This document shows, piece after piece, positions 3,985 to 49,360 of a DNA stretch of 64,000 bases (position 1 is the stretch's first letter; every line of letters starts with the position of its first letter). The stretch is from positions 1 to 64,000 of the IMG/VR virus record IMGVR_UViG_3300045988_003641. One strand, given 5' to 3'. This stretch comes from a virus. Taxonomy: Duplodnaviria > Heunggongvirae > Uroviricota > Caudoviricetes. The translations under genes were made by a program, and so were the position numbers. The notes under the pieces were generated by a model. It worked only from the letters and a program-made list of their open reading frames with translations. It ran no database searches and was not told the DNA's origin.

Positions 3985-4188
3985 ATGGCTATTATTAATG
4001 GTTTAACCATTGAAACTACACACATCAAAGATATCAAAGTTGGTGATATAGTCCTTTCCCACGGCGTAGAAAAAACTGTCACTGCAAAGGATATCAAAGA
4101 GGATTCTTTCATGGGTAGGACTCTCTTCGGTGATTCTTATTGCTTAGGCTATCTTGCAGTTTTAAAAGTTGTCAAAAATAACAAATAA
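3985..4188 (+). CDS. hypothetical early protein
   Basis: ORF 67 aa behind cassette leader. Confidence 0.55.
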   Translation: MAIINGLTIETTHIKDIKVGDIVLSHGVEKTVTAKDIKEDSFMGRTLFGDSYCLGYLAVLKVVKNNK

Positions 4189-4193
4189 AGTAC

Positions 4194-4229
4194 TTTACAA
4201 GGGGCTTAAAAGTTGATAACTTAAGCCCC
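4194..4229 (+). promoter_or_regulatory. Early cassette type B (variant stem)
   Basis: GGGGCTTAA/TTAAGCCCC hairpin with conserved flanks. Confidence 0.5.
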
Positions 4230-4274
4230 AGATAAAGAACTTTACCACTAAATCCTAAACTGGAGATTCTAAAA

Positions 4275-4451
4275 ATGATGAACTACTTTAACATTCCCGA
4301 TACCTGTAGATTATTGACACAAGAAGAAAATTTGGGTAAACCTTTCATTTACCACATGCCAGATAACACGGCAAAAACTTATAGTTACAATGTTAACCGT
4401 TTCACCGCATACGCTGCAAAGAACGGCTATAGGTTGGTTACTCAAAAGTAA
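4275..4451 (+). CDS. small hypothetical early protein (58 aa), not in supplied ORF track
   Basis: ATG behind leader CTGGAGATTCTAAAAATG; open to TAA at 4449-4451. Confidence 0.5.
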   Translation: MMNYFNIPDTCRLLTQEENLGKPFIYHMPDNTAKTYSYNVNRFTAYAAKNGYRLVTQK

Positions 4452-4527
4452 TGCTGGTTACAACTGCTGGCGAGATTCCTACAGTTGCAGTCAAACTAGT
4501 TTTCTCAAAGAAAGTTAAATAAAGCAC

Positions 4528-4562
4528 TTTACAAGGGGTTTATAGTTCGATAAAGTAAGCCC
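4528..4562 (+). promoter_or_regulatory. Early cassette type B
   Basis: GGGGTTTA/TAAGCCCC hairpin with conserved flanks. Confidence 0.5.
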
Positions 4563-4609
4563 CAGATAAAGAGCTTTACCACTCAATCCTTAAACTAGGA
4601 GATTCAAAA

Positions 4610-5152
4610 ATGAAATGTTATCACGGAACTACTCAAGAAAATTTCCTCAACCTGATTAATAACGGTGATAAACCATCAGGCGCATGGAATTGTTCGGATA
4701 TGGACGGCAATTTTTACGTGTATCCAGAAAATAAAATCTATGGCGACGATGATGAAGAGATAACATCGGAGGGCATTCAGCAAGCTCTAGGGAACGCCAC
4801 TATTACGGCGGCCTTCCAGATGAAAACCCAAAATATTGTTATCTTAGAACTCGATATTCCAGATGATGAGCTAAATGATGATTATTCTTGTGATAATATG
4901 TCGAGTGTAGCAAGTTTTACAGAGTACTTTGATGTAAACTGGATTAAAAAGGTCTATACAACAGAGTTTAACGCTATGTATTCGCCTTTTTGTCTTCCTT
5001 CACTGGATAACCCAAATATGAACTATCTTGATGAGACATTAGAACTACTTGCTAAAAGTGTTCAACAGTCGGACAGTATTCAGGTTTTTTGTGACATCAT
5101 AGATACACTGACAGGAAACATTGCAGAAGAGGATTTAAAGAGCTTTTTCTAA
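4610..5152 (+). CDS. hypothetical early protein (acidic)
   Basis: ORF 180 aa behind cassette leader. Confidence 0.6.
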   Translation: MKCYHGTTQENFLNLINNGDKPSGAWNCSDMDGNFYVYPENKIYGDDDEEITSEGIQQALGNATITAAFQMKTQNIVILELDIPDDELNDDYSCDNMSSVASFTEYFDVNWIKKVYTTEFNAMYSPFCLPSLDNPNMNYLDETLELLAKSVQQSDSIQVFCDIIDTLTGNIAEEDLKSFF

Positions 5153-5185
5153 AAACCTATGCAATCACCTTATAAACACTAATCA

Positions 5186-5204
5186 GCCCCTTGTAGGGGC
5201 TTTT
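5186..5204 (+). terminator. putative rho-independent terminator
   Basis: GCCCCT-tgt-AGGGGC hairpin followed by TTTT. Confidence 0.5.
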
Positions 5205-5218
5205 AGAGGGCTTAAATC

Positions 5219-5452
5219 ATGCTTACAACCATTTATCTCATCCTCTCAATTTGTAATGGCCATTCATGTGACTTTAAAGGGCTTGAAGAGTTTACAGGAA
5301 GTAAAGAAAATGCTATTCAAGTTTGCCAGATAGCAAGGCAAGACTATCCCGCCAGTGATGATATACAATGTTACTTTAAGACAGAAGATGACGACGGAAT
5401 CTATTTCGACAGTGTTGACGGTCAATATGAAATTATCATTGAAAAAGACTAG
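5219..5452 (+). CDS. hypothetical early protein
   Basis: ORF 77 aa with AGAGGG RBS. Confidence 0.5.
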   Translation: MLTTIYLILSICNGHSCDFKGLEEFTGSKENAIQVCQIARQDYPASDDIQCYFKTEDDDGIYFDSVDGQYEIIIEKD

Positions 5453-5509
5453 ACAAGCCTGATAAAAGTCTGTAAATTGTCAATCAACGGGGAGGGAATG
5501 ACCTTCCCC
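5450..5509 (+). promoter_or_regulatory. Early cassette type A (TAGACA-17-TAAATT + hairpin); promoter overlaps 3' end of upstream CDS
   Basis: -10 5473-5478, hairpin 5489-5509. Confidence 0.6.
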
Positions 5510-5543
5510 ACTAAATAAAACCCTTAAACTAGGAGATTCAAAA

Positions 5544-5885
5544 ATGGCTTATGTAACCGTAATTACCGATAAAGCTGGCGCATCTTGGTCAACTCAAGTA
5601 AGTGATAAGATGTCACCTATGCAGTGCCTAAAATACTTTGAACAGTGGAACAAAGGCGAGGACACAAGCCCCTTTCAAGTGATGCAGATTATCCATGTAG
5701 ATAACGAAGGGAATAAAACGGTTTTAAATAGTGAATACTACGCAAGCCGTTTTGAAACGAGAAGTAAAACAATGAAGCTTTTACGTGAATCCGGTTATGC
5801 CCATATCGCCGCGTTAATCTGGGATGACCTGCTAAAAAGTCAGCGTATCAGCTATGTAAAGCCTGAAAAAATATTCATCAGTTAA
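5544..5885 (+). CDS. hypothetical early protein
   Basis: ORF 113 aa behind cassette leader. Confidence 0.6.
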   Translation: MAYVTVITDKAGASWSTQVSDKMSPMQCLKYFEQWNKGEDTSPFQVMQIIHVDNEGNKTVLNSEYYASRFETRSKTMKLLRESGYAHIAALIWDDLLKSQRISYVKPEKIFIS

Positions 5886-5917
5886 TCAATAACTTACAAA
5901 AAACTTTTAAAAAAGTG

Positions 5918-5946
5918 TTGACAATACCCCTTGACATTGGTAACTT
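5918..5946 (+). promoter_or_regulatory. sigma70-like promoter with tandem TTGACA boxes
   Basis: AAAAAGTGTTGACA...TTGACA; -35 5918-5923, 17-nt spacer, -10 TAACTT 5941-5946. Confidence 0.45.
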
Positions 5947-6014
5947 TGTTCGAGGGGGCTTATCTAAAAGGGATTCACTTAAAAGATTCTTTATAGATAA
6001 GCTCAAAAAATTAC

Positions 6015-6073
6015 TTGCAATCAACTATCAAAACAAGTAAATTACTAATCAACGGGAAGGCAATAACCTCCCC
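6015..6073 (+). promoter_or_regulatory. Early cassette type A variant (TTGCAA-17-TAAATT + GGGAAGG/CCTCCCC hairpin)
   Basis: Covarying hairpin arms, same leader. Confidence 0.6.
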
Positions 6074-6105
6074 ACTAAATAAAGTCCTAAACTGGAGATT
6101 CTAAA

Positions 6106-6636
6106 ATGAACAAATTTCAAGCTATCAACTTCATTCGTTCAAATGCTGTAATGTCTAAGCCTGTAAAAGATACATACGAATTCCGTTGTAATGGGGTACA
6201 TTTCGCAACAATCACCAAATCAGAAAACGGGGCTTATTACGTTCATCGTCGTAATGTTTCCACTGTTGTAGTCTCTCACTTTATGCAAGCTGTAGCGGAA
6301 TTATTACCGTTATTCTTAGAGATTTACTTAGATGAGTGTAAAAACGTTCACAACCACGTTAAAAACCTTTTAAACGGTTATAAAATGGCTTATGAACGTT
6401 CTATCAAGTCCTTAAACAAGTTCTATAAAGCCCCTGAAAACTCTGTTGCTTCAGCCTATGGCGTAGGCGGTTGGACTGTTAGTCTCTTCGAAGTGGAAGA
6501 AATCGAGCTTTACGACCATCGACCTAACGGTTACTCTAAGACTCTCGGTGAAGGTTTAACGTTCAATATCAAGAACTTAGAAAAAACTTTAAAAGATATT
6601 GAAAAAGATATTGACGAGACAATAAAAAGTCTGTAA
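6106..6636 (+). CDS. hypothetical early protein
   Basis: ORF 176 aa behind cassette leader. Confidence 0.6.
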   Translation: MNKFQAINFIRSNAVMSKPVKDTYEFRCNGVHFATITKSENGAYYVHRRNVSTVVVSHFMQAVAELLPLFLEIYLDECKNVHNHVKNLLNGYKMAYERSIKSLNKFYKAPENSVASAYGVGGWTVSLFEVEEIELYDHRPNGYSKTLGEGLTFNIKNLEKTLKDIEKDIDETIKSL

Positions 6637-6670
6637 ATTGTCAATCAACGGGGAGGGAATGACCTTCCCC
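6611..6670 (+). promoter_or_regulatory. Early cassette type A (TTGACG-17-TAAATT + hairpin); overlaps 3' end of upstream CDS
   Basis: -35 6611-6616, -10 6634-6639, hairpin 6650-6670. Confidence 0.65.
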
Positions 6671-6702
6671 ACTAAATAAAGTCCTAAACTGGAGTTATCA
6701 AG

Positions 6703-6966
6703 ATGGAAAACGTAGAATTAACCACACTTTTACAAATTGCAACTGACAAAGAAGATGTAGCACTGTTTCACCGTATCGAAAGCGATTTATTCAATGGTGA
6801 AATCATCAAAGAGTCTTACGAAGTTGTCGGATTCAAAGATGGTAAAGCGTTTGGCTTTTTTGACCTCGACAAAGGCAACGCTGTCACAAAGTATGATGTC
6901 GTATCTTGTGAGATTCTTACAAAATACAACGAAAAAAGGCTTGCAACATACGCCAATATGCAGTAA
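6703..6966 (+). CDS. hypothetical early protein
   Basis: ORF 87 aa behind cassette leader. Confidence 0.6.
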   Translation: MENVELTTLLQIATDKEDVALFHRIESDLFNGEIIKESYEVVGFKDGKAFGFFDLDKGNAVTKYDVVSCEILTKYNEKRLATYANMQ

Positions 6967-36138: not shown

Positions 36139-44208
<8,070 letters not shown>

Positions 44209-44210
44209 TA

Positions 44211-45383
44211 ATGGCAGTAGGTGAAATTCAAATTAGTGCCTTGCCTCAAGCATCCTTACCAATTGACCTTAGTGATATCTTCCATCTTAAGCAGGGTATT
44301 GAGGATAAGAGGTGTACTCTTGAGCAATTACTTGCTCCACACGCAAGCCTAAGAAATAACCCTCATGGTGTTACTAAAACACAAATTGGTTTAGATAATG
44401 TTATTAATGCTCTTCAGTTAGTCGCTGCAAATAACTTATCAGATATTGTTAATGTAGCTGAGGCAAGAGCAAATCTACAGATTATGTCTTCAGAAGAGGT
44501 TAATAACCTTGTCCAGCAACATATCAAGGACAAGAGTAACCCACACAATACAACTAAGGCACAGGTTGGTTTAAGTAATGTTCAGAACTGGACAACATCT
44601 AATCTGTATAACGAAGATGCAGATAAGTATGCTACAGCAAGAGCATTAAATAACTTGTACAAGGCTGTTCAGGCTTCTTATCCAGTAGGTACTATCCATC
44701 TTTCTATGAACTCTGCAAACCCTTCCACATACTTAATTTGTGGAGGTACTTGGGAGTTAGTTTCAAAAGGCAGGGCATTGGTTGGCTATGACTCTGATAC
44801 AAGACCAGCAGGTTCTATATTTGGCGCTTCAACTGTCACTTTGTCAGTTAATAACATACCTCAGCACTCCCACTCTGTGTCTCTTAGCGGTGGTGGTCAC
44901 ACTCATAATGCAACTGTGTCAATTTCAGCTTTTGATTATGGGACTAAGACTACAAACTCTTTTGACTATGGGACAAAAGCTACTAACACAACTGGTAACC
45001 ATACACACAGTGTGTCAGGTAACACTAGCACCAATGGTACTCACAACCATGATGTGTATCCTAGAGCAAATGATGGCTCTGGTAATGCTGTGGCTGACTC
45101 TGATGGTGGTGGTCCAAGAAGGACATCAAGGACTTCTAGTGATGGTGCGCACTCACACAGCTTTAACGTCACATCTGGTGCATCAGGTGACCACAGCCAC
45201 ACGGTTGGTATTGGTGCTCACAGTCATACAGTTGGTATTGGTTCACATACGCATAGTGGCACTGTAACAGTTTCTTCTTCTGAACATACACATAGTGGCA
45301 ATACAAATAGTGTTGGTGGAGGTCAGGCAGTTAATATTGAACAGCCATCCTTCGTACTGTATGTATGGCAGAGAACAGCTTAA
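44211..45383 (+). CDS. tail fiber protein with His-rich (HxH repeat) C-terminal domain
   Basis: C-terminus has HSHS, GGHTHN, NHTHS, GAHSHS, DHSHT, AHSHT, SHTHS, EHTHS repeats and FDYGTK motif, ends WQRTA. Confidence 0.7.
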   Translation: MAVGEIQISALPQASLPIDLSDIFHLKQGIEDKRCTLEQLLAPHASLRNNPHGVTKTQIGLDNVINALQLVAANNLSDIVNVAEARANLQIMSSEEVNNLVQQHIKDKSNPHNTTKAQVGLSNVQNWTTSNLYNEDADKYATARALNNLYKAVQASYPVGTIHLSMNSANPSTYLICGGTWELVSKGRALVGYDSDTRPAGSIFGASTVTLSVNNIPQHSHSVSLSGGGHTHNATVSISAFDYGTKTTNSFDYGTKATNTTGNHTHSVSGNTSTNGTHNHDVYPRANDGSGNAVADSDGGGPRRTSRTSSDGAHSHSFNVTSGASGDHSHTVGIGAHSHTVGIGSHTHSGTVTVSSSEHTHSGNTNSVGGGQAVNIEQPSFVLYVWQRTA

Positions 45384-45429
45384 TTTCTTTACAGGGGCTT
45401 TATAGCCCCTTTTAAGAGGAAAATTTATA

Positions 45430-47778
45430 ATGGCAGATTACAAATTGAGTGAGCTAAACTCAATCGACACAATCCGTTCAGATGACCTTCTTCATGTCAG
45501 AGTTAAAAAGAGACCTAAAATGCTGGGTGATGAAGACCGTCGAATGACCTATCAAGATTTCTTAGCATCTTTTAAGCTTGAAAGATTTGTTCAGATTGCT
45601 GGTAGCACTATGACGGGTGACTTAGGAATTGTTAAGCTACTTTACGGTGGCAAGGCTGTATTCGACCCCACAGGCTCTTCTGAGATTACTGTTGGTGATA
45701 TTTTAAAGACTTTTAAAATCAACGCAAACGACCTTAAACTAACTATTGCAGACGCTTCAAGGTCGGCAACTGTTTATCATACTTTGAATAAGCCAAGCCC
45801 TAATGAACTTGGGATGAGAACTAATGAAGAGAATGACGCAAGGTATGCAAGACTAGCCGTGAATAATACCTTTAGAGGTACTCAAGCTATCCTCTCTGAC
45901 AATGGAGCGCTCATTATTAAAAATATCACTCAAGGTGCTCCACTCTATCTTCGTGGTCAAGATGCAGATGGTACTAACAGATGGTATCTAGGTAATGATA
46001 ATAGGGGTACAAATAATCTTGTATTGAAGAATGTAAAGTCTGACGTTTCAATTGCTATTTTAGAGAATTTGGTGAAAGTCAACAGAACTCTTCAAATTGC
46101 TGGCCAAGTTCAGCCTTCAAGTTTTGCTAACTTAGATGCTAGGTATTTTACCCAGACAGCAGCTAATCAGAGATTTGCGCAGTTAGCTGGTAATAACACT
46201 TTTACTGGTACTAACACTTTCTCTAATTTTGTTGCTAAGAAGAATGCTGAAGCCATCACTCTGCGAAATGTGGACACTGCTCCCTCTTTATATATCCGAG
46301 CAAGAAAGTCAGATGGGAATTATAAGTGGTATATTGGTAATGACGGTGATGAGAACATTTTAAAAATCTATAACTATCTAACAGAAACACAAGTCTCACT
46401 AGGTAACACTATTGCCATGAGCAAAACAGTTCGAATTGATGGTCAAGTACAACCTTCTGATTGGACTAACATTGATTCTAGATATATTCCGGCAGCCACT
46501 TTGAGTAATCTCCCTAAACTTAATGTTGCTAATACTTTCACAAATGTGCAGACTATTGTATCAGATAATGAAGGTTTAGTATTAAGGAGCTTAACACAGG
46601 GACAGCCACAATATATCCGTGGTGTTGATACTGCGAATGTATCTAGGTGGTGGCTGGGCGTAGGAACTGCTAATTCTAACGTGGTAACCTTGAGCAACAG
46701 CTTTTCAGGCACTCAAATTTCCCTAGAGCCAACATTGGTTAGTATGAATAAGAATCTGTATATTAATGGGCAGGTTCAACCAAAAAATTGGTCTAACTTA
46801 GATGCTAGATACTTTGTTAAGACTCAGTTATTAAATCAATCTTTGATGACTGCATCTGTAGATAATCTTGAAAACCCTTCAGCATTTAATCTTGGGTATT
46901 CAGGTTTTGTCAGAAACAACAATGTGACTAGTGGTCTGAAAGAGTTGGCAATTCATGTTGCTCACTCTAGTAAGACTGCTGCACACGCAAGGGGTATCTC
47001 TTTTGTATACGGTTCAAACGGTTTGGCAACATTCACCTATGCCTATGACAAAAATGGTGACTATGCCGGAGAGGCACAGATTTACACAACTGATTTTAAA
47101 CCAACCCCTTCAGAGATTGGTGCATATACTAAAGCAGAAACTGACCAGAAATTTGCAACAGCAATTAGTGACTCTACAGACCTTAATAAAATCTATCCAG
47201 TAGGTATTGTAACTTGGTTTAACAGTGATGTTGACCCTAATACAGCACTACCTGGGTTAACTTGGACGTATCTTAACAATGGTGTTGGTAGGACTATCAG
47301 GATTGCAGCAGCAGATGGTTCAGATGTTGCTACAACAGGTGGTTCAGACTCTGTGGTGTTATCTGTTGGTAACTTACCGTCACACACCCATAGTTTCTCT
47401 GCTACCACTTCATCTTTTGATTATGGTACGAAGAACACTAATAGTACTGGTGCTCACACCCACTCAGTTAGTGGTACTGCTGCATCTGCTGGGCAACACG
47501 CACACAGAATTTCACAGGGTGACAACGCTAACGTTCCATCAGGTAGAGTTGCATCTTCGAACTCTGCTCAGACCCATGTTGGTTGGACTGAAAATGATGG
47601 TGCTCACACCCACTCAGTTAGTGGTACTGCTGCATCTGCTGGTGGACATGCTCACTCTGTAGGTATTGGTGCTCACAGCCACACAGTTAGTGGTAACACT
47701 GGTGGTACAGGCTCTGGTTCAGCATTTAGTGTTACTAACCAGTTCTACAAGTTAATGGCTTGGGTAAGAACTGCTTAA
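45430..47778 (+). CDS. long tail fiber protein with His-rich (HxH repeat) C-terminal domain
   Basis: 782 aa; C-terminus shares FDYGTK, AHTHSVSGTAASAG x2, GAHSHTVSG with 44211-45383, ends WVRTA. Confidence 0.7.
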   Translation: MADYKLSELNSIDTIRSDDLLHVRVKKRPKMLGDEDRRMTYQDFLASFKLERFVQIAGSTMTGDLGIVKLLYGGKAVFDPTGSSEITVGDILKTFKINANDLKLTIADASRSATVYHTLNKPSPNELGMRTNEENDARYARLAVNNTFRGTQAILSDNGALIIKNITQGAPLYLRGQDADGTNRWYLGNDNRGTNNLVLKNVKSDVSIAILENLVKVNRTLQIAGQVQPSSFANLDARYFTQTAANQRFAQLAGNNTFTGTNTFSNFVAKKNAEAITLRNVDTAPSLYIRARKSDGNYKWYIGNDGDENILKIYNYLTETQVSLGNTIAMSKTVRIDGQVQPSDWTNIDSRYIPAATLSNLPKLNVANTFTNVQTIVSDNEGLVLRSLTQGQPQYIRGVDTANVSRWWLGVGTANSNVVTLSNSFSGTQISLEPTLVSMNKNLYINGQVQPKNWSNLDARYFVKTQLLNQSLMTASVDNLENPSAFNLGYSGFVRNNNVTSGLKELAIHVAHSSKTAAHARGISFVYGSNGLATFTYAYDKNGDYAGEAQIYTTDFKPTPSEIGAYTKAETDQKFATAISDSTDLNKIYPVGIVTWFNSDVDPNTALPGLTWTYLNNGVGRTIRIAAADGSDVATTGGSDSVVLSVGNLPSHTHSFSATTSSFDYGTKNTNSTGAHTHSVSGTAASAGQHAHRISQGDNANVPSGRVASSNSAQTHVGWTENDGAHTHSVSGTAASAGGHAHSVGIGAHSHTVSGNTGGTGSGSAFSVTNQFYKLMAWVRTA

Positions 47779-47857
47779 TCCCTTGTTAACTGATTGTTAA
47801 GATGGTGTTAATATTCTTTATGGGTATTCTCACCATCTTGGCTGATGAGGTGATTAA

Positions 47858-48052
47858 ATGCCTACAATCCTAGCAATTCTTCTAAAAAATCTAGGTAGCT
47901 TCTTCTGGAAACTCATTTTATCCCTTCTAAGTGAATACATGATTGAGAAAGTGTTCTTTAAGCTTGCAAGATATCTTGCGAGTAAAACAGACACACCTAT
48001 TGATGATGAGTTCGTAGATAACTTAGAAAAAGCTTTTAAGGGGGAGAAATAA
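47858..48052 (+). CDS. small hydrophobic protein (possible holin-like)
   Basis: 64 aa, N-terminal hydrophobic stretch. Confidence 0.35.
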   Translation: MPTILAILLKNLGSFFWKLILSLLSEYMIEKVFFKLARYLASKTDTPIDDEFVDNLEKAFKGEK

Positions 48053-48424
48053 ATGAAGTGGCTAGAGGAAGCTTTTAAAAATAATATTGGTGCAATTGTA
48101 GTTGGTATTTTTAGTGTTATTGGGATGTATACCACCATGCAAGTTTCAAGTGGTAAACAAGAAGTGTCTGTCACAACAAAGTTACAGCAGCTAGATAATT
48201 ATTCAAAAAGTAACTATTCAGCTATTCATGATTTACAGTCTGACATGAGATTGATTCAGCTAGGGATGGAGAACCAGAAAGTTCAGTTAGAGAATGTTAA
48301 GGGCGAAAACGCAAAACTTACCAAAACTCTTGATAAATTCTCTGACAGTGTAAATAATCTGGCTCAATCAGTATCAGCCCTCCAAGCTATTACTGAGAAG
48401 AACACAAAGAATACTGAAAAATAA
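48053..48424 (+). CDS. membrane-anchored coiled-coil protein
   Basis: 123 aa; N-terminal TM IGAIVVGIFSVIGMY then heptad-like region. Confidence 0.45.
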   Translation: MKWLEEAFKNNIGAIVVGIFSVIGMYTTMQVSSGKQEVSVTTKLQQLDNYSKSNYSAIHDLQSDMRLIQLGMENQKVQLENVKGENAKLTKTLDKFSDSVNNLAQSVSALQAITEKNTKNTEK

Positions 48425-48431
48425 AATTTAA

Positions 48432-48457
48432 GGCTCCCGTAAAAAGGAGCCTTTTTT
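48432..48457. terminator. bidirectional rho-independent terminator between convergent units
   Basis: GGCTCC-cgtaaaaa-GGAGCC followed by TTTTTT; A/T-rich on opposite strand. Confidence 0.65.
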
Positions 48458-48460
48458 GTT

Positions 48461-49360
48461 TTACTTACCTACTGACAGAGGTGCTTCAATCTTCCCTGCA
48501 TGTTGGTAGTTGTTAATGCCACCAATAAAATCACTTGCAGTGAGATGTTTTAGGTCACTTAAAGTGTTAAGTGGGATACCAATCTCAAAAGTTGGTGCAT
48601 GGAACTCTTCATTGTTCATCAGTTCATAAACCTGCTTCATATGGTTCTGATAAATCTGAGTATCTCCAAAGACACCTATCAAATATCGTGGAGTGTATCC
48701 AGTCATCTTACAAAGGACTTCCAGAATAAAACCATAAGATGCAATGTTAAACGGAAGCCCTAAAAAGGTGTCTACAGAACGCTGATACCATTGTAAGTCA
48801 ACTTCACCCTCGTTGGTGATATAAATCTGAAACAGAACATGACAAGGTGCTAAAGCCATTGAGTTTGCTGCAATATCTGCTGCATTCCAAGCGTTAACAA
48901 GCATGTAACGGTCTGTGATATCACCCTTCATCTTCGCTACTAAGGTCTCTAACTGGTCTACAACACAACCATCATGACCCTCAAAGTTTCTCCACTGAAC
49001 CCCGTAGATTCTACCACCTGCATCCTCTAACCAGTCTTGTTCAGAGGAATAATTAGAGCTTAACCAGCGTTTAAAATCATCTGACCAGATAGTCCAGCGT
49101 TCCCCATCATTTTCACCCCAAGTACGGTAACGAAGTTCACCAAGTTTATTCTCACCATTCAGGAACCATAAAGCTTCCCCAATAACTTGCCGTGTAAACA
49201 CCTGTTTAGATGTTAAGAGTGGGAAACCAGTTCGCATATCAAAACGAAACTGTGGTGGAGCAAATGCAGAGATAACCTCTCCAGTTCGTGTAGTACGCAG
49301 TTCACCAACGGATAAAACATGGTTCAGGATATTTTTGTAACTCAAATCAGCTTGTGACAT
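48461..49360 (-). CDS. thyA: thymidylate synthase
   Basis: 299 aa with active-site LAPCHVLFQ motif. Confidence 0.85.
   Translation of the reverse strand: MSQADLSYKNILNHVLSVGELRTTRTGEVISAFAPPQFRFDMRTGFPLLTSKQVFTRQVIGEALWFLNGENKLGELRYRTWGENDGERWTIWSDDFKRWLSSNYSSEQDWLEDAGGRIYGVQWRNFEGHDGCVVDQLETLVAKMKGDITDRYMLVNAWNAADIAANSMALAPCHVLFQIYITNEGEVDLQWYQRSVDTFLGLPFNIASYGFILEVLCKMTGYTPRYLIGVFGDTQIYQNHMKQVYELMNNEEFHAPTFEIGIPLNTLSDLKHLTASDFIGGINNYQHAGKIEAPLSVGK

Follow-up and report, generated by a model that had tools for sequence, protein, structure and literature searches.

A stretch of viral DNA of 64,000 nucleotides (positions 1 to 64,000 of IMG/VR virus record IMGVR_UViG_3300045988_003641, class Caudoviricetes; hereafter the window) carries, between positions 44211 and 47778, two adjacent tail fibre genes whose products both end in histidine-rich domains, which raises the question of what these domains are and how one phage came to possess two of them. 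Megablast of the window places it in the genus Felixounavirus (genome identities of 92.6-97%), the fibre region being 92.6% identical to phage ULIM9 over its full length and a 24-kb stretch 97% identical to VpaE1_ev035. On sequence evidence, the window comes from a Felix O1-like myophage of this genus that infects Escherichia coli, and the two genes are its short and long tail fibre genes, orthologous to gp26 and gp27 of Bas63 (Escherichia phage JohannRWettstein, MZ501086). It is very probable that each fibre ends in a tip of the phage T4 gp37 type, with a metal needle and exchangeable head cassettes.

The histidines of both proteins are arranged in HxH motifs (two histidines separated by any one residue). 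The short fibre has nine of them (H219, 230, 264, 278, 314, 328, 337, 346 and 359), all in its last ~170 residues, and the long fibre has six (H652, 676, 690, 726, 740 and 749), all in its last ~130 residues; in 5000 residue shuffles, the mean counts were 1.4 and 0.4 and the highest were 8 and 4, respectively, so that the observed counts were never reached. The original prediction of a shared HxH-rich C-terminal domain, marked by an FDYGTK motif and a terminal W(Q/V)RTA, is borne out by both proteins: FDYGTK occurs at residues 241 and 251 of the short fibre and 663 of the long fibre, and the sequences end in YVWQRTA and MAWVRTA, respectively. Residues 157-341 of the short fibre are 37% identical to residues 589-753 of the long fibre (BLASTP with composition-based statistics, expectation value E=5e-27), and the homologous C-terminal region of both fibres comes to ~200-240 residues. 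Two unrelated low-complexity tails rich in Gly, Ser, Thr and His might resemble each other through composition alone, a possibility already raised with the original prediction, and the needles are indeed strongly composition-biased (the HMMER bias term amounts to 32-35 bits in the matches to 2XGF given below). However, the BLASTP E value above was obtained under compositional adjustment; the alignment extends over a non-repetitive collar (YPVG...P.T....TW) and the C-terminal W-x-R-T-A; the HxH register is kept with respect to T4; the collar of the short fibre scores above the threshold of a curated Pfam family; and the shuffles never attain the observed motif counts. Because of the collar homology and the motif register, a purely compositional similarity is refuted and retains next to no probability; the similarity is one of true homology that goes beyond low complexity.

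The relationship extends to T4. A phmmer search of all Protein Data Bank (PDB) sequences matched the two tips to that of the T4 long tail fibre (2XGF, gp37 residues 785-1026): residues 146-362 of the short fibre align with residues 18-228 of 2XGF (E=1.5e-28), nearly the whole crystallised fragment, and residues 647-761 of the long fibre align with its residues 94-218 (E=2e-14), with weaker matches to T4 gp10 over the collar. All seven HxH motifs of the T4 gp37 tip (H883, 915, 929, 966, 980, 989 and 998), each of them Fe-coordinating, pair in order with H230, 264, 278, 314, 328, 337 and 346 of the short fibre in the HMMER alignment, and the first six pair with H652, 676, 690, 726, 740 and 749 of the long fibre. 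The short fibre has two extra motifs, H219/221 and H359/361, one at either collar-proximal end, and the long fibre is without the T4 H998 unit and without one xDxGTK repeat. The His-rich modules and the receptor-binding tip of T4 gp37 are thus evidently true homologues, as had been proposed from the likeness of their motifs. At the level of curated families, Gp10_C (PF21939, threshold 27 bits) matches the short fibre at 64 bits, whereas its match to the long fibre (residues 586-696, 22.1 bits) is below the cut-off, and the Phage_fiber repeat (PF03335) is found in the long fibre and in T4 gp37 alike.

In T4 gp37 the HxH motifs occupy an outward span of 49 residues and a return span of 35, with 34 residues in between; the corresponding lengths are 62, 48 and 33 residues in the short fibre and 41, 26 and 33 residues in the long fibre. 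The outward span exceeds the return span by 14-15 residues in all three proteins, and the changes in strand length with respect to T4 are paired (+13/+13 residues in the short fibre, -8/-9 in the long fibre). These counts, in which the strands co-vary and the turn is constant at 33-34 residues, lend indirect support to an out-and-back hairpin like that of T4, and the head of the short fibre aligns to the T4 gp37 segment that lies between H931 and H966. An AlphaFold2 monomer model of the short fibre has a predicted local distance difference test (pLDDT) score of 67.5 and a predicted template modelling score of 0.31. Confidence is good over the collar (pLDDT 82-90) and moderate for the strands near the HxH motifs; for the head it is poor (pLDDT <50 at residues 285-303). 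The modelled collar matches the T4 gp10/gp11 fold and superposes on 2fkk at 2.5 A; the monomer needle is of low confidence and unmatched to 2XGF, a lone chain of an intertwined trimer being a poor query.

Both the formation of trimers and the binding of metal by the HxH motifs would be expected from the homology to 2XGF, taken together with the published Bas63 density and the published Bas63 and T4 structures; in T4 gp37, the Fe ions that lie along a trimeric needle are coordinated by seven di-histidine motifs (PMC12609058). A gp37-like fold might also be combined with HxH layers that bind another metal (Zn2+ or Ni2+) or none, the histidines then serving in packing, hydrogen bonding or pH sensing. 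In keeping with this, the density of the Bas63 fibres is too poor for rotamers (PMC12609058), some relatives have xDYGxK repeats in place of distal HxH motifs yet still make fibres, the outward strand of Bas63 gp26 has only two motifs, and the long fibres of phages HY02 and SFPB have four in total. On the other hand, across 81 homologues down to ~30% identity, conservation of the histidines of H219/221, H314/316 and H346/348 is at least 90%, and the T4 equivalents of the motifs coordinate Fe (PMC12609058), so that this alternative is considered very unlikely and a metal needle of the T4 type is preferred.

How the phage came to have two such tips is a separate matter. The original prediction regarded the shared module as a sign of domain exchange between two receptor-binding proteins. 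Certain features would suit the idea that the two fibre genes recently swapped their tip or underwent gene conversion there: they are adjacent and in the same orientation, separated by 46 nucleotides; near-identical short stretches, such as GIGAHSHTV, are common to both tips; and six families of DNA repeats (D1-D6) connect both needles. Over 195 aligned codons, however, identity between the tips is only 42% in protein and 51% in DNA, exact DNA words common to both reach at most 17 nucleotides, and the third codon positions of identical residues have an identity of 0.56. A neighbour-joining tree of the tips of 12 Ounavirinae, rooted on T4, places the short-fibre tips in one clade and the long-fibre tips in another, and the needles are of unequal length (nine versus six motifs), as in most relatives examined. 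On the low DNA identity and the separation of the clades, recent exchange between the two genes was rejected as highly improbable. The comparison indicates instead that the shared tip derives from an old duplication (paralogy) or shared ancestry that predates the diversification of the subfamily, because the short fibre of the Erwinia phage SunLIRen (Kolesnikvirus) already has it. The second fibre gene of SunLIRen (locus L012, positions 4162-5670) encodes a protein of 502 residues without an HxH tip and is followed by more fibre genes; thus, the arrangement with two HxH tips is not universal in the Ounavirinae.

The exchange that the data do reveal is real, but it occurred between phages, within each gene. 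Comparison with the tips of related phages, which had been suggested along with the original prediction, found a variable head between conserved flanks in each fibre. Conservation is minimal at residues 261-330 of the short fibre and 681-735 of the long fibre, flanked by a conserved collar, proximal needle and C-terminus, and the minima lie within the heads proper at residues 281-310 and 693-725, respectively. The head of the short fibre is the least conserved part of that protein (0.40-0.53 per 10-residue bin), and W386 and R388 near its C-terminus are invariant across 81 homologues. The number of HxH motifs among relatives ranges from six to nine in short fibres and from four to six in long fibres. 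A short fibre with nine motifs (four outward and five return) is found in the window, ULIM3, ULIM8, ULIM9, HY02, BPS17L1 and LMP33, and these short fibres have a T4-like distal segment, GNHTHSVSGNTSTNGTHNH (T4: GGHTHSGSGSTSTNGEHSH), unlike Bas63. In the four-motif long fibres of HY02 (locus L006, positions 4223-6766) and SFPB (locus L009, positions 4221-6599), a different head cassette that is rich in aromatic residues and poor in histidine (RGTMEITGSFGYFRSD...) lies between conserved flanks. A structure that is not based on histidine can thus take the place of the distal needle.

The long fibre gene is itself a mosaic, at 46150-47150 of the window (residues ~240-575). The DNA of the window is ~100% identical to that of ULIM8 and ULIM3 from 43906 to ~46150, but at ~46600-47150, a segment that includes the domain at residues 461-555 of the long fibre, it is 98-100% identical to ULIM9 and only 40-68% identical to ULIM8 and ULIM3; through the tip of the long fibre, all of these are similar again. 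The switch in identity marks the long fibre as an inter-phage recombinant, and the mosaic points to recombination among co-circulating Felixounaviruses. Conserved junction sequences of the fibre genes are KPTPSEIGAYTK and GIGAHSHTV, and the strongly conserved KPTPSEIGAYTKAETDQKF junction that follows the hypervariable domain of the long fibre may be a recombination joint. Residues 481-579 of the long fibre, which overlap this domain, weakly match the tail fibre protein S of phage Mu (8ju3, E=4e-4 by phmmer). The shaft of the long fibre matches gp37_trimer (PF20744, threshold 21.7 bits) in three stretches at 182 bits; this family was not found in the short fibre by the Pfam search. The shaft repeats are moderately conserved between phages and variable among relatives, and moderate conservation of the long-fibre shaft has likewise been reported for Bas63 (PMC12609058).

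From these comparisons a mechanism may be proposed. Each fibre would, like its homologues, be a homotrimer; its N-terminus would sit on the baseplate, and its tip would consist of a collar resembling T4 gp10, gp11 and gp12, an out-and-back needle and a hypervariable head. By analogy with the homologues, the head would contact the host surface, which for this group of phages would be lipopolysaccharide (LPS); Felixounaviruses are LPS-dependent (PMC8594841; bioRxiv 10.64898/2026.04.02.716166). The HxH motifs of the three chains would supply six imidazoles to each metal ion on the three-fold axis (Fe2+ in T4), in both strands, giving by motif count up to nine stacked sites in the short fibre (four outward and five return) and six in the long fibre. 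This stack would stiffen a thin beta-structure that is nearly without a hydrophobic core. The collar, proximal needle and C-terminus would form a constant scaffold, whereas the distal needle and head would be swapped as cassettes by recombination between phages, with a change of host range as the outcome. More tentatively, and with less than even likelihood, the length of the needle may be tuned in HxH units, and the nine layers of this short-fibre lineage, if all of them bind metal, would form the longest metal-ion stack among the tips compared; if true, such tuning would perhaps set the reach of each fibre into the LPS layer.

Tail-fibre tips determine which bacteria a phage infects, and Felix O1-like phages serve in typing, biocontrol and therapy directed at Salmonella and E. 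coli. A map of constant scaffold versus exchangeable cassette would offer cut sites for host-range engineering. The Bas63 structure had already established this layout for the genus, as T4 gp37 had for the fold, and the window adds only another combination of alleles; both exact fibre protein sequences are already contained in public metagenome contigs of ~89 kb.

The features of the fibre genes and their surroundings are listed in the table. The window has the gene order of Bas63 (gp23-gp27), with thymidylate synthase and dihydrofolate reductase (DHFR) genes after it, so that synteny (the wedge proteins gp23 and gp24, the platform gp25 and then the short and the long fibre) and sequence agree on orthology. 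The short fibre is 75% identical to Bas63 gp26 and 98.7% identical to the ULIM8 tail fibre. The 100-residue protein encoded next to it matches PHROG 4141 over its full length, and the role of gp25 as a platform for the long fibre is taken from the Bas63 study (PMC12609058). Concerning the baseplate protein before it, the 287-residue open reading frame (ORF) assigned mechanically begins at a GTG (43043-43049) overlapping the stop codon upstream of it, and relatives annotate the start at an ATG two codons downstream, which gives 285 residues, like Bas63 gp24.

Table. Coordinates of the tail fibre genes, their predicted domains and neighbouring features in the window.
Feature	Coordinates	Strand	Details
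Baseplate_J protein	41577-43046		Upstream of fibre genes
Baseplate protein, 285/287 residues	43043-43906		Upstream of fibre genes
100-residue protein, Bas63 gp25 orthologue (long-fibre platform on baseplate)	43906-44208	+	Size and position of bas63_0025
Short tail fibre gene, 390 residues, Bas63 gp26 orthologue	44211-45383	+	PHROG 2097 'tail fiber protein', E=4.5e-135, full length
Short fibre N-terminal part, residues 1-150: baseplate-binding region and two ~60-residue repeats	44211-44660	+	
Short fibre collar, residues ~154-215	44670-44855	+	gp10/gp11/gp12-type fold
Spurious +1-frame ORF, 161 residues, inside short fibre needle	44782-45267	+	Stop-free for 168 codons versus 110+-30 in synonymous shuffles, p=0.04
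Short fibre ascending needle strand, residues 219-280: four HxH and two xFDYGTK repeats	44865-45050	+	Alignment to 2XGF
Short fibre head/turn, residues 281-313	45051-45149	+	Hypervariable; presumed receptor-contacting tip
Short fibre descending needle strand, residues 314-361: five HxH	45150-45293	+	
Short fibre C-terminal return to collar, residues 362-390 (...EQPSFVLYVWQRTA), and stop codon	45294-45383	+	Conservation 0.76-0.92
Long tail fibre gene, 782 residues, Bas63 gp27 orthologue	45430-47778	+	PHROG 4277, full length, 1232 bits; 63% identity to gp27
Long fibre shaft, residues ~137-466: three ~110-residue repeats	45838-46827	+	Each with terminal GQVQPxxWxNxDxRY
Long fibre hypervariable domain, residues ~467-555 (or ~461-555), then conserved KPTPSEIGAYTKAETDQKF junction	46828-47094 (or 46810-47095)	+	Conservation 0.33-0.36
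Long fibre collar, residues ~586-648	47185-47373	+	Aligns to short fibre collar; conservation 0.87-0.89
Spurious +1-frame ORF, 127 residues, inside long fibre tip	47279-47662	+	Stop-free for 133 codons versus 102+-26 in synonymous shuffles, p=0.14
Long fibre ascending needle strand, residues 652-692: three HxH and one SFDYGTK	47383-47505	+	
Long fibre head/turn, residues 693-725	47506-47604	+	Hypervariable; lone H716; conservation ~0.45
Long fibre descending needle strand, residues 726-751: three HxH	47605-47682	+	
Long fibre C-terminal return, residues 752-782 (...FYKLMAWVRTA), and stop codon	47683-47778	+	Conservation 0.93-1.0

The N-terminal part of the short fibre has a mean column identity of 89% among 10 Ounavirinae, with helices predicted at residues 66-106 and 143-156, and its two repeats carry NPHxxTKxQxGLxNVxN (DNA repeat D7, at 44357-44402 and 44537-44582). 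By tblastn and PHROG matches, similar segments are also present in fibre or structural proteins of phages that are only very distantly related (Goslar, a jumbo phage of Klebsiella and a Bacillus SPbeta-like phage). A 76%-identical copy of the short fibre gene is present in GenBank GU169904.1 ('Staphylococcus phage SA1', 147 kb), apparently a chimeric or contaminated assembly.

The N-terminal parts of the two fibres, which had been described as different, have no significant similarity by BLASTP (E=0.26). Homology between them was considered and judged too weak to claim, since a profile comparison by hhalign, with two alignments of 10 sequences, covered 40 columns at E=0.004 and a probability of 8.6%. 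There is a weak likeness between 44211-44355 (DIFHLK...GIEDKRCTLEQLL) and 45430-45575 (DLLHVR...GDEDRRMTYQDFL), which would fit with Bas63, whose two fibres are reported to have baseplate-binding domains that are alike in structure but not in sequence (PMC12609058).

On the 3' side of the fibre genes are two small ORFs, the second of which is annotated as 'holin' in relatives, and then the thymidylate synthase and DHFR genes on the opposite strand. A scan of 43800-48500 for promoters and terminators gave counts no greater than the shuffle expectation, with no terminator between the short and long fibre genes, and its only hairpin (48430-48453) is past the fibre module. This hairpin is perfect and GC-rich with T-runs on both sides and could be a bidirectional terminator; it is located at the junction of the rightward structural and lysis genes and the leftward thymidylate synthase and DHFR block, and it coincides with a change of sign in GC skew.

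Two long ORFs in the +1 frame overlap the needles, and their interpretation as real overlapping genes was rejected: they are not conserved (that of the short fibre is broken in the 96%-identical ULIM9 and much shorter in other relatives, and that of the long fibre is not conserved in relatives either), neither has a match in a PHROG search, and their lengths are near those of runs in synonymous-codon shuffles that keep the protein sequence, that of the short fibre being marginally greater. The original prediction was right to call them spurious, but the biased codons to which it ascribed them are not the main cause. A stop in the +1 frame requires T at codon position 2, which is found in 15% of needle codons versus 26% of codons elsewhere, and the long stop-free runs are therefore due mainly to amino-acid composition.

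Parts of these fibres recur in several known systems. Lambda Stf, the phage 9g fibre and many T-even gp37 proteins are 44-54% identical to residues 234-343 of the short fibre (tblastn), but the N-terminal shafts and attachment modes of lambda Stf, 9g and other Tevenvirinae gp37 differ from those of the window fibres. The collar fold of T4 gp10, gp11 and gp12 is matched by the collars of both window fibres, but gp10 and gp11 have no HxH needle. With the T4 gp37 tip, the structure of which (PDB 2XGF) was reportedly described by Bartual et al. in 2010, the window fibres have in common the collar, needle and head by homology, the HxH register, FDYGTK, the GIGAHxHTV repeats and a C-terminus of the form hydrophobic-x-R-x-A; they differ in having nine or six HxH motifs instead of seven. 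T4 gp37 forms the distal quarter of a kinked long fibre made of four proteins, whereas each window fibre is one protein that probably sits directly on the baseplate. The T4 receptor is OmpC/LPS. T4 gp37 requires gp57A and gp38 for folding, and lambda Stf uses the Tfa chaperone; the gp38 gene is adjacent to that of gp37 in T4, but a search beside the window fibres found no gp38-like or Tfa-like gene, the two small ORFs downstream matching only PHROGs of unknown function.

The presence of an HxH tip in both fibres is already known for Felixounavirus from Bas63, and its detection here is a rediscovery from raw sequence. Cryo-electron microscopy of Bas63 (Sci Adv 2025, PMC12609058) showed a short fibre of 430 A (gp26) and a long fibre of 630 A (gp27), two trimers that each have a collar, an HxH needle and a T4 gp37-like head at which the chain turns back, with seven HxH motifs in the short fibre and six plus an extra histidine in the long fibre, and with both tips highly variable across the genus. 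The window resembles Bas63 in genus, in the order and sizes of the genes, in the arrangement of two fibres, in tips composed of collar, HxH needle and head, and in the six HxH motifs of the long fibre. The two phages differ in that Bas63 gp26 has seven motifs (two outward and five return), with xDYGxx repeats in place of two distal outward motifs and another head, whereas the short fibre of the window has nine (four outward and five return). Where the Bas63 long fibre reads H-H-N-H, that of the window reads Q-H-A-H, and the two long fibres diverge strongly at residues 461-555.

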